A stretch of DNA of 64,000 bases, taken from IMG/VR virus record IMGVR_UViG_3300037465_000347, positions 420-64,419 of that record, one strand, 5' to 3'. Within the stretch, counting starts at the first letter, position 1. Each line of letters begins with the position of its first letter. This DNA comes from a virus. The notes beneath the pieces are model-generated. The model searched no databases, was not told the origin of the DNA, and saw only the letters and a list, made by a program, of their open reading frames with translations. A program made the position numbers and the translations under genes. This document shows, one piece after another, positions 5,039 to 6,912 of this stretch.

Positions 5039-5067
5039 TCAACCAATAATTGGATATATACATCGTT

Positions 5068-5664
5068 ATGAGCTATCTATAGAACCATCTAATTAAGCAA
5101 ATGAAAGAGTGTCCACAAACGGATACTCAATCTGTGTATGAACACGGTGTCTCTGTAAAAGAGCACATTTTTGAATTGATTTCATTTTTAAAAACAGGAC
5201 AAGTGCCTGAAGGTTGGAGATTACCTGACTGGATGCATATGTATCGAGAGCAGATTCTAGCCTCGCTTCTTCTAGAGGATATCATCAAAGCCTACGCAGT
5301 CTTCCATGATTGTGGTAAACCTTATTGTCTAATAATAGATGATAAGGGCAGAAGACATTTTCCTGACCATCCAGAGATATCACACAACGTTTGGCTTGCT
5401 GTTAGCAATAACAAAACGATTGCTAAGTTAATTCTTATGGATATGAAAATTCATACTATGAAGGCAGCAGATGTTGAAGAATTCTGTCAGCATCAAGAAG
5501 CTATCACTCTCCTCATTGCAGGATTAGCTGAAGTACATAGTAATGCAAAGATGTTTGGCGGCATTGATTCTGAATCCTTCAAAATCAAATGGAGTCAAAT
5601 TAACAAACGTGGCAAAGCAATTTGTCGTAAACTATTTGGAGAACATCATGTGTCTATAGGTTAA
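5068..5664 (+). CDS. HD-domain phosphohydrolase with in-frame amber at codon 5 (MSYL*NHLIKQMKEC...)
   Basis: VYEHG...FHDCGKP...HFPDH HD motifs; ATG5068 is in frame with ATG5101; TAG at 5080-5082; GATATATA-N7-ATG signal at 5053. Confidence 0.8.
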
Positions 5665-5998
5665 AGAAGGCGATAAGCTTTATGTTATTACTCGTGCAGA
5701 TTTGGAACCGGGTTATCAAGCAGTGCAGAGTATGCATGCATTGAGACAATTTACGGCAGAGCATCCTGAGGTCGATAAGGCATGGTTTGAGCAATCAAAC
5801 TATCTTGGACTTCTTTCGGTGCAGAATGAACAAGAACTCCTGCAGTTGTTAGAACAAGCAAACAACCAAGGGATTCAAGCTTCAGCTTTCCGAGAACCCG
5901 ATATTGATAATCAAATGACAGCCATTGCGTTATCACCTGGCCCTAAGTCTAAAAAGCTTTGTAGCCGTTTACCACTAGCATTAAGAGGTAAGCCATGA
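5648..5998 (+). CDS. Peptidyl-tRNA hydrolase 2 (Pth2)-like protein with in-frame amber at codon 4 (MCL*VKEGDKLYVITRADL...)
   Basis: KLYVITRADLEPGYQAVQSMHA...FREPDIDNQMTAIALSP...LPL is a Pth2-type fold. GGAG SD 6 nt before ATG5648; TAG at 5657-5659. The ORF track start (5702) omits the first conserved strand. Confidence 0.85.
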
Positions 5999-6246
5999 GC
6001 AAATGGATTGATAAAGAGCGTGGGCCCGAATGTTTCTGTGGCATGCCAACTGGAGTATATATTAGTGAAGATGGTAAGGCATGGTTAATGTGTATCTTTC
6101 ATGAATATGAAGCGGGAGCAATGTTCCCGCTCCCTAGAGATGGAAGACCTGATGCCTGGCCTGATATTCCTCGTGAAGAGATAAATGAGCTAATGAAACG
6201 AGGAGCAGAAGAAGATGAACAAGAACCTATTTCAGAAGATGGATAA
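5995..6246 (+). CDS. Hypothetical protein
   Basis: ORF track; ATGA overlap with the upstream gene. Confidence 0.6.
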   Translation: MSKWIDKERGPECFCGMPTGVYISEDGKAWLMCIFHEYEAGAMFPLPRDGRPDAWPDIPREEINELMKRGAEEDEQEPISEDG

Positions 6247-6400
6247 AAAAGAATACGATTACTGCTCATGTTCGGGCCATTGCTGTGACAAACCAGAGCG
6301 ATTTTGCCCTGTTCACGTTTGCGAAGCAGAAAATTTCTGTGAAGAATGCTTTGTTTCAGAATGTGCTAATTGCCACAAATCATGTGCGTGTGACCTATGA
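6239..6400 (+). CDS. Small Cys-rich hypothetical protein
   Basis: Many CxC/CxxC motifs; ORF track 6215..6400. Confidence 0.55.
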   Translation: MDKKEYDYCSCSGHCCDKPERFCPVHVCEAENFCEECFVSECANCHKSCACDL

Positions 6401-6750
6401 AAAAGACTAGTATAGCATCTTTGCAAGAACGTTTAACTGATTGGTTGCCATGGGATGAAGCTATGTATCAGGTTGGAGCTACTCTTGGTTTCTGGCCTGA
6501 GTTTGGCGCACCTCATGATAACGATCCGTGGCATGGCGTTAAAGACGTTATGCACACTAGAAAACATGAACCGCTAGGTGCTATACTGGAATGGTTTCTC
6601 AAAGATTTGGTTGAAGTGGGTTGTCTTGAATCAAAAACAGTCGAACTTGAATTCGAATTTTCAAGTGGGAAAAAGACCACGATTCCAATCGCGCATTATC
6701 GTTGGAATGTAAAATATAAAGGACCGGCAGATTTAATATCAATGTTATAA
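6397..6750 (+). CDS. Hypothetical protein
   Basis: ORF track; ATGA overlap. Confidence 0.6.
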   Translation: MKKTSIASLQERLTDWLPWDEAMYQVGATLGFWPEFGAPHDNDPWHGVKDVMHTRKHEPLGAILEWFLKDLVEVGCLESKTVELEFEFSSGKKTTIPIAHYRWNVKYKGPADLISML

Positions 6751-6756
6751 TGTAAT

Positions 6757-6830
6757 CCGCTCTTGGTATAGTGGCTGTGCCGTCGACTCTAAATCGACAG
6801 AGCCGTGTTCAAATCACGGAGAGCGGGCCA
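6757..6830 (+). tRNA. Amber suppressor tRNA(CUA) #1 (C1-G72, G73)
   Basis: CCGCTCT/AGAGCGG acceptor; GTCGA-CTCTAAA-TCGAC anticodon arm; CCGTG-TTCAAAT-CACGG T-arm; G73-CCA encoded. Confidence 0.9.
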
Positions 6831-6840
6831 AATAATATAT

Positions 6841-6912
6841 GCGCCGTTAGCTCAGTGGTAGAGCGGGAGCCTCTAAAACTCACGGTCGAGGGTTCAAATC
6901 CCTCACGGCGCA
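6841..6912 (+). tRNA. Amber suppressor tRNA(CUA) #2 (Lys-like body, A73, CCA not encoded)
   Basis: GCGCCGT/ACGGCGC acceptor; GCTC/GAGC D-stem; loop CTCTAAA; GAGGG-TTCAAAT-CCCTC T-arm; anticodon stem has 27-43 and 31-39 mismatches. Confidence 0.85.

Follow-up and report, generated by a model that had tools for sequence, protein, structure and literature searches.

Why do two neighbouring genes of a phage each run into an in-frame amber codon within their first five codons, in a gene run that ends with two tRNA genes carrying the matching CUA anticodon? The locus lies in a 64,000-nt stretch of viral DNA (IMG/VR record IMGVR_UViG_3300037465_000347, positions 420 to 64,419; hereafter the window), which is nearly all of one 64,461-bp contig. 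Related IMG/VR contigs are 140-480 kb long and carry 39-65 tRNA genes each, and the window contig is therefore a fragment of a giant phage. The first gene encodes a predicted HD-fold phosphohydrolase (HD) and the second a hydrolase resembling Pth2. An original prediction, made from the DNA letters of the window, had proposed that the two proteins are made only when suppressor tRNA outcompetes release factor 1 (RF1), a switch confined to these genes rather than genome-wide recoding. From comparison with related loci, we consider it likely that the unit from HD to the tRNAs is a suppression-gated operon in a standard-code giant phage, in which the enzymes would be made only when the phage tRNA with anticodon CUA, tRNA(CUA), reads UAG.

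The HD gene (5068-5664, + strand, 198 codons) starts at ATG 5068, followed by AGC TAT CTA and, as codon 5, the in-frame TAG at 5080-5082 (+ strand; next base A). It continues with AAC CAT CTA ATT AAG CAA and ATG 5101, and ends with TAA at 5662-5664. The Pth2-like gene (5648-5998, + strand, 116 codons) overlaps the 3' end of HD by 17 nt. A Shine-Dalgarno (SD) motif, GGAG (5638-5641, + strand), is conserved in relatives and stands 6 nt before ATG 5648; TGT CTA, the in-frame TAG at 5657-5659 (+ strand; codon 4, next base G) and GTT follow, and the gene stops with TGA at 5996-5998. After this TAG the frame holds no ATG, GTG or TTG until TTG 5702, which is placed inside or 3' of strand 1 of the protein (the strand comprises residues 10-16). 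The anatomy thus agrees with the prediction that both genes open with a short peptide and a TAG and continue in frame. The two tandem tRNA(CUA) genes expected at the end of the gene run were found by ARAGORN at 6757-6830 and 6841-6913 (both + strand), and scored 47.2 and 65.7 bits, respectively, against Rfam RF00005 (gathering score 29). Number 1 has regular stems, discriminator G73 and an encoded CCA; number 2 has a body like that of a phage tRNA-Lys and two non-standard anticodon-stem pairs. With a cloverleaf and the anticodon CUA, both are predicted amber-suppressor tRNAs; a similarity comparison gave no assignment of their amino-acid identity. The stretch 5000-7000 was reproduced without any difference by two Logan assemblies (freshwater metagenome runs, depth 13 and 27), one of which may be the source of the window; no RNA run was among the listed runs that hold this stretch.

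The early stop was conserved across IMG/VR loci. All of the first 12 Pth2-like relatives, down to 38% identity, read ATG, 1-3 codons, TAG and then Val/Ile-Lys, and about 13 of 16 HD relatives, also down to 38% identity, read ATG, 1-4 codons, TAG and then N-x-L-I-x-D-M. A wider, profile-based survey of IMG/VR yielded 68 distinct Pth2-like loci, 55 of which had an early TAG (a TAG within 16 codons of strand 1). An ATG stood 1-5 codons before the TAG in 51 of these 55 loci, the commonest form being ATG NNN TAG, and 42 of the 55 had no canonical start between the TAG and strand 1. Of 63 distinct HD loci, 50 had TAG as the first in-frame stop met on going 5' from the conserved core, and several HD clades carried an internal TAG at residues 45-46, 53 or 116. 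Several IMG/VR loci encode a Pth2-HD fusion with a single early TAG. The pair CTA-TAG, which had been taken as common to both genes, holds in the window and its close relatives but not as a family motif: the codon before TAG varies in the Pth2-like family, being CTA in 9 of the 55 loci and ACG, AAG, AAA, TCG or others elsewhere.

We estimated selection on the codons that follow the stop. The ratio of non-synonymous to synonymous polymorphism (pN/pS) from the TAG to the next canonical start was 0.36 for HD (6 codons) and 0.20 for the Pth2-like gene (14 codons), compared with 0.30 and 0.34, respectively, in the gene bodies (the following 30 codons). These values indicate that the post-TAG codons are under protein-level purifying selection. 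The conserved residues just after the TAG belong to helix 1 in HD and precede strand 1 in the Pth2-like protein, and HD homologs that lack the TAG (L025, L028, the GAP32 type, ME3 and Arash) have an ATG just 5' of the same helix-1 residues. The alignments therefore do not bear out a family that simply starts downstream of the TAG, an outcome that would have told against the original prediction. A conserved in-frame stop with protein constraint directly after it would mark both genes as suppressor-gated.

The stop was also linked to the tRNA. A tRNA(CUA) lay within about 3.5 kb in 25 of the 28 loci first examined; in the wider survey it was found within 3.5 kb of 43/55 early-TAG Pth2-like loci versus 3/13 others (Fisher p = 3e-4, a value that ignores kinship). 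The type of stop appeared to follow the anticodon of the linked suppressor, since TAG went with CUA in those 43 of 55 loci and TGA with UCA in two opal variants. In one of these (L145), a tRNA(UCA) accompanies a Pth2-HD fusion whose early stop is TGA; the other (L217) has an HD gene with an early TGA, where its cousins L224 and L227 have TAG, and two tandem tRNA(UCA) genes. The tRNA(CUA) bodies vary widely among relatives, and homologs without the TAG have no conserved residue at its position, so that the stop codon itself looks selected, and not one amino acid. The dependence of synthesis on suppression, as originally predicted, is strongly supported by these comparisons, and the recurrence of early TAG together with tRNA(CUA) in dozens of distant phages suggests a translational switch that has been conserved.

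Some loci showed other peculiarities of stops and tRNAs. In L126 (∼3470-3500), the frame of a Pth2-like gene is interrupted early by TGA (GTG TTG AAA TGA AAC) and offers no canonical start before strand 1; no tRNA(UCA) was found among the 17 tRNAs of this 7.3-kb locus, and one may sit elsewhere on the 192-kb contig. The closest relative of the window (G001, comprising loci L029-L042) has 65 tRNA genes, some of them called with four-letter anticodons ('tttt', 'ttaa'), and two tandem tRNAs called 'ttca' stand beside a normally starting Pth2-like gene in L106 (5255-5408).

The same features were found in cultured phages. In GAP32, CBB, XbC2 and fHe-Yen9-04, the Pth2-like gene starts M-A-Q-TAG or M-S-H-TAG, HD has a TAG at residue 45, and an annotated Sup-tRNA lies 2.5-3 kb downstream. 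XacN1 and Stenotrophomonas CM1 encode an HD-Pth2 fusion with a single early TAG (start ATG AAA TAG), and pT24 encodes a Pth2-HD fusion, also with a single early TAG. An early TAG is also present in the Pth2-like gene of RsoM2USA, LR745206 and LR756500, and in LR745206 in HD as well. In the mycobacteriophages Myrna and Catera, a TAG stands directly 5' of the annotated GTG start, and ARAGORN finds a tRNA(CUA) 130-250 bp downstream. ARAGORN reads the anticodon CUA in tRNAs annotated as Ser, Arg and Phe in Myrna (L078 2966-3037), Catera (L079 3105-3178) and Arash (L085 4476-4550), each adjoining a Pth2-like or HD gene. GenBank annotations of the HD and Pth2-like genes are split or truncated at the TAG in L076 (GAP32), L082 (fHe-Yen9-04), L083 (CBB), L084 (XbC2), L077 (pT24), L074 (XacN1) and L085 (Arash). 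Examples are GAP32_397/398/399 and Yen9-04 g408/g409; the annotated start of pT24 BPT24_235 lies inside the Pth2 domain, and Arash gp84c, a 'peptidyl-tRNA hydrolase', is just 50 aa long.

Several observations weigh against gating by suppression. tRNA number 2 of the window has a weak anticodon stem; 12 of the 55 early-TAG Pth2-like loci have no tRNA(CUA) within 3.5 kb; and in ME3, Arash, L025 and L028 a tRNA(CUA) adjoins a TAG-less HD gene. When co-occurrence was examined with control for kinship, the early-TAG state changed at least 7 times on a quick tree, with 2 supported independent pairs; with just two such pairs, the test was without power. The in-frame ATG of HD at 5101, 6 codons past the TAG, is conserved and could serve reinitiation. 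The codon after the TAG of the Pth2-like gene is ATT in 26, ATC in 4 and ATA in 1 of the 55 loci, and in Myrna and Catera the GTG that follows the TAG has an SD motif 7 nt before it, so that a start just after the TAG is possible there.

The last of these points belong to the alternative that survives best, namely that the TAG only ends a tiny upstream open reading frame (ORF), that the enzymes start downstream (at ATG 5101 in HD, at the Ile/Val codon after the Pth2-like TAG) by reinitiation or a near-cognate start, and that the suppressor tRNAs serve another purpose. In RsoM2USA, L202 and L203, moreover, a full-length upstream ORF ends in frame just before HD, as this explanation would have it. 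We nevertheless judge it improbable. The codon after the Pth2-like TAG is GTT in the window and GTA, AAC or ACT elsewhere, none of which is a start codon. Where a core SD motif exists, its place is 6-9 nt from the mini-ORF ATG (21 of 52 loci of the family) and not before a downstream codon. A plain terminator should often be TAA in AT-rich genomes, yet the nearest in-frame upstream stop in the 68 Pth2-like loci was TAG in 58, TGA in 10 and TAA in none. The fit between stop type and nearby suppressor anticodon speaks against mere termination, the residues after the TAG appear to be selected as protein (in HD as part of helix 1), and the internal TAGs of HD (residues 45, 53 and 116) could not be bypassed in this way.

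A second possibility is that TAG is reassigned generally or block-wise, as in the 'code 15' crAss-like and Lak phages, and that the two genes are mere examples. The suppressor tRNAs of the window and the depletion of TAG as a terminator fit this explanation, as each is known to precede or accompany recoding (bioRxiv 10.1101/2021.08.26.457843). TAG ends 2 of 102 called ORFs in the window (both small, on the minus strand and possibly spurious) and 21 of 406 and 29 of 431 in relatives; TAA ends 64 of the 102 ORFs in the window genome. Coding density by greedy ORF calling, in contrast, was 90-93% under code 11 and showed no rise with TAG as sense in the window genome and three relatives of 267-328 kb (code 11 versus TAG as sense, 0.903 and 0.907 for the window genome; 0.934 and 0.933, and 0.922 and 0.923, for the relatives of 267 and 328 kb). 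Across the genome, a mini-ORF with TAG upstream of an ORF was no commoner than one with TAA or TGA. When four genomes were compared gene by gene, HD and the Pth2-like gene were the only ones in which an in-frame TAG led by a mini-ORF recurred at one aligned position; this gene-restricted comparison replaced an all-frames search, which was too noisy since off-frame ORFs of close genomes also align. Neither density nor in-frame TAG counts thus indicated a genome-wide reassignment (code 15), and the claim that recoding is not genome-wide held. We regard reassignment as very improbable. The TAGs conserved 5' of 27444 and 51996 fall within the 3' end of the preceding gene, and chance would account for the other early-TAG candidates in the window (16912-17502; 34299-34796, minus strand; 27444-28259; 28529-29062), since TAA and TGA give the pattern just as often. 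A 144-codon ORF in a related genome (G005 21875-22309, minus strand; L044 1878-2309) starts ATG AGT TTA TAG GTT AAA, like the Pth2-like gene; it gave no informative Pfam match, and the resemblance may be chance.

In a third explanation, ribosomes would shift into the +1 frame at the HD stop (GGT TAA A, 5659-5665) and make an HD-Pth2 fusion, bypassing the Pth2-like TAG. The Pth2-like frame is indeed +1 relative to HD within the 17-nt overlap, and natural HD-Pth2 fusions exist in XacN1 and CM1. We found this scarcely credible: the site lacks a slippery P-site codon and a closely spaced SD like those of prfB, neither the overlap nor the TAA is conserved (the sequence in L006 and L007 is TAG ATC AAA/AAG), an SD and ATG belonging to the Pth2-like gene itself are conserved, and the TAG of HD would be left unexplained. 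That the TAGs mark pseudogenes or assembly errors can be practically dismissed, for although gene callers truncate both genes, the ESM Atlas has HD only from residue 12 and GenBank gives the GAP32-type HD as two or three ORFs, two assemblies of the locus are identical, the TAG is kept across more than 100 loci in many independent assemblies under purifying selection, and structure models of both proteins reached high confidence.

We return to gating by suppression. In the proposed model, HD, the Pth2-like gene, three small ORFs and the two tRNA(CUA) genes would form one transcription unit of ∼1.9 kb. Ribosomes would initiate at ATG 5068 and at the SD-led ATG 5648, and meet UAG after 4 sense codons in HD and 3 in the Pth2-like gene. 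Where host RF1 wins, a tetrapeptide or tripeptide would be released (2-5 residues across the family); where charged phage tRNA(CUA) wins, the full enzyme would be made, and enzyme output would scale with the suppressor-to-RF1 ratio. A stop this close to the start would keep failed attempts cheap. Work in E. coli showed that a purine after UAG favours amber suppression, and termination on very short nascent chains is inefficient. The base after the TAG was A in 37, G in 17, C in 1 and T in none of the 55 Pth2-like loci (purine in 54 of 55); this context and the short nascent chain would both raise readthrough. Since enzyme output would need both the mRNA and active suppressor tRNA, the circuit amounts to a coherent feed-forward AND gate, and it resembles one also in that the tRNAs lie downstream in the same gene run and no plus-strand terminator was found when one was looked for inside the HD-to-tRNA unit. 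Readthrough itself, co-transcription, the inserted amino acid and the biological purpose are the parts of the model that we infer. The purpose could be the timing of tRNA-maintenance enzymes, their scaling to suppressor activity, or feedback on suppression.

A more tentative extension, which we think unlikely, is a closed homeostatic loop on a portable phage cassette. The early stops would be the sensor, and the enzymes, reporting UAG suppression, would act back and set the level of readthrough. They would do so on the suppressor tRNA itself (deacylation, 3'-end trimming or repair) or, alternatively, on by-products of suppression, namely peptidyl-tRNAs from readthrough and non-stop stalls.

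The HD protein gave no match in Pfam or NCBIfam; in its ESM Atlas neighbour cluster, 15% of members carry PF01966. The metal-binding residues H80-D81 (in FHDCGKPY) and D125 were invariant and H26 nearly so among 11 sequences down to 38% identity, and this H...HD...D pattern would place it in the HD-domain phosphohydrolase superfamily. Its AlphaFold2 (AF2) model reached a predicted local distance difference test score (pLDDT) of 90.2, with helix 1 (residues 3-14) spanning the TAG position. The nearest fold is the C-terminal domain of the Aquifex CC-adding tRNA nucleotidyltransferase (3wfo residues 249-448; VIA-align Z 14.0, root-mean-square deviation 3.2 over 159 residues), followed by the HD domain of the glycyl-tRNA synthetase (GlyRS) beta subunit (8ie2, Z 11) and classic HD phosphohydrolases (Z 8-10); the top Swiss-Prot model matches were O67911 and Q9RV39. 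Its best structural neighbours are thus class II CC/CCA-adding tRNA nucleotidyltransferases, with their HD-like C-terminal domain, and the bacterial GlyRS beta HD domain. The E-values of these structural matches are weak (1e-2) and Z is inflated for helical folds, so that the match is a lead towards tRNA-end chemistry, not proof. Unlike the CC/CCA-adding enzymes, the HD protein stands alone: it has 198 aa, no nucleotidyltransferase head and no Pfam HD match. The modelled fold serves as a lead that the protein may be an HD-fold tRNA-end phosphohydrolase. In L027 and RsoM2USA, a Cys-rich ORF ends in a TAG in frame with the HD gene.

The Pth2-like protein matched Pfam PF01981 (PTH2) from residue 10 with 33.8 bits (cut-off 23). 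Its AF2 model (pLDDT 93.4) matched 2zv3, 3erj, 1wn2, 1q7s and 1xty in Foldseek searches with E-values of 4e-7 to 1e-4 and template modelling (TM) scores of 0.7-0.77; the archaeal and human Pth2 enzymes 2zv3, 3erj, 1wn2 and 1q7s share its fold at 23-25% identity. The catalytic residues of Pth2 are the Lys of 'GK' and the Asp of 'DAG'. In a profile alignment to solved Pth2 chains, the 'GK' Lys position is Tyr, Leu or Ala in the phage proteins and the 'DAG' Asp position is an invariant Glu83. Two NCBIfam equivalog cut-offs were also missed (26.2 versus 126; 21.5 versus 82). Given these replacements and missed cut-offs, the substrate may differ from that of Pth2, and the protein is best called Pth2-like, not Pth2, a predicted tRNA ester hydrolase. 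Among jumbo-phage genes, PTH2 has already been listed under ribosome rescue or RNA repair (PMC7824862). Fusions in both orders, together with a PHROG profile (phrog_14850) that joins the Pth2 part to the HD part, argue that the HD and Pth2-like enzymes act together.

Several known systems share parts of this arrangement. The prfB gene for release factor 2 (RF2) is autoregulated through an early in-frame UGA that is passed by a +1 frameshift, and senses its own product. It resembles the present genes as a translation-factor gene with an early in-frame stop, where the decoding outcome reports the state of termination or decoding; in HD and the Pth2-like gene, in contrast, the stop is proposed to be read in frame by a dedicated tRNA. 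If true, the closed loop would be a tRNA-based counterpart of RF2 autoregulation. The bar minigenes of phage lambda have two codons and give short peptidyl-tRNAs that need peptidyl-tRNA hydrolase, and they are toxic when Pth is limiting. The commonest 5' end of the Pth2-like family, ATG-NNN-stop, has this two-codon minigene form; whereas bar minigenes are free-standing, the phage minigene is fused in frame to the Pth2-like gene and uses UAG, rarely UGA. A synthetic suppressor-tRNA 'leak dampener' likewise puts an amber target and its suppressor under common control as an AND gate against leaky expression (PMC7969014), and is engineered, whereas the phage circuit would be natural, ancient and tied to specific enzyme families. 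The 'code 15' phages (crAss-like, Lak and other gut phages) share a phage tRNA(CUA) that overrides the host UAG stop and the depletion of TAG as a terminator; TAG is read there as Gln, and in-frame stops were proposed to delay translation of particular genes (bioRxiv 10.1101/2021.08.26.457843). In those phages the TAGs are scattered over many genes, mostly late or lysis genes, and code-11 density collapses, whereas the window phage has the standard code and the stop only in two tRNA-enzyme genes by tRNAs, nearly always at codons 2-6.

A literature search found no description of the early-TAG HD/Pth2-like genes with suppressor tRNA. The phage recoding preprint does not mention the arrangement (bioRxiv 10.1101/2021.08.26.457843), and a jumbo-phage review that lists PTH2 mentions neither suppressors nor stop codons (PMC7824862). 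The authors of the XacN1 genome read through all 18 annotated amber stops in silico and found no target for its two tRNA(CUA) (PMC5852040); their target escaped notice since gene callers, faced with a stop 2-5 codons past the true start, begin the ORF downstream or split it. The arrangement is real, conserved and apparently unpublished. It would provide natural client genes for the 'orphan' suppressor tRNAs of standard-code phages, many of which have no known target, through a gene-specific, start-proximal stop-codon control distinct from genome-wide recoding and tied to two tRNA-maintenance enzymes that are also found fused together. It may be an intermediate stage towards a full code change. 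The annotation of HD and Pth2-like genes would be corrected in many GenBank phage records, and the model is directly testable in cultured phage-host pairs (GAP32, CBB, Serratia BF, XacN1 and Myrna/Catera).

A -10-like motif, GATATATA, lies at 5053-5060 (+ strand), 7 nt 5' of ATG 5068, and is kept upstream of the HD start in relatives. Judging by its position, it may be a phage promoter or indicate that the unit starts leaderless. Just 3' of the tRNAs, at 6927-6934, there is a second copy, and the two copies bracket the HD-to-tRNA unit. GATATATR occurs 11 times in the window versus 6.2 expected (a weak enrichment), 9 times on the + strand, and stands shortly 5' of several + strand gene starts. 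The three small ORFs between the Pth2-like gene and the tRNAs (5995-6246, 6215-6400 and 6397-6750, + strand) encode 83, 61 and 117 aa, the middle one Cys-rich, and gave no match in Pfam or PHROG. They are chained to the Pth2-like gene by ATGA (5995-5998 and 6397-6400) or other overlaps and are probably translationally coupled to it; through such coupling, they may be gated indirectly. An M23 peptidase gene (4556-5038) lies directly 5' of the HD unit. At 2699-3128 of the window, four tRNA-Thr genes are clustered, one of the spacers between them being 113 nt long.

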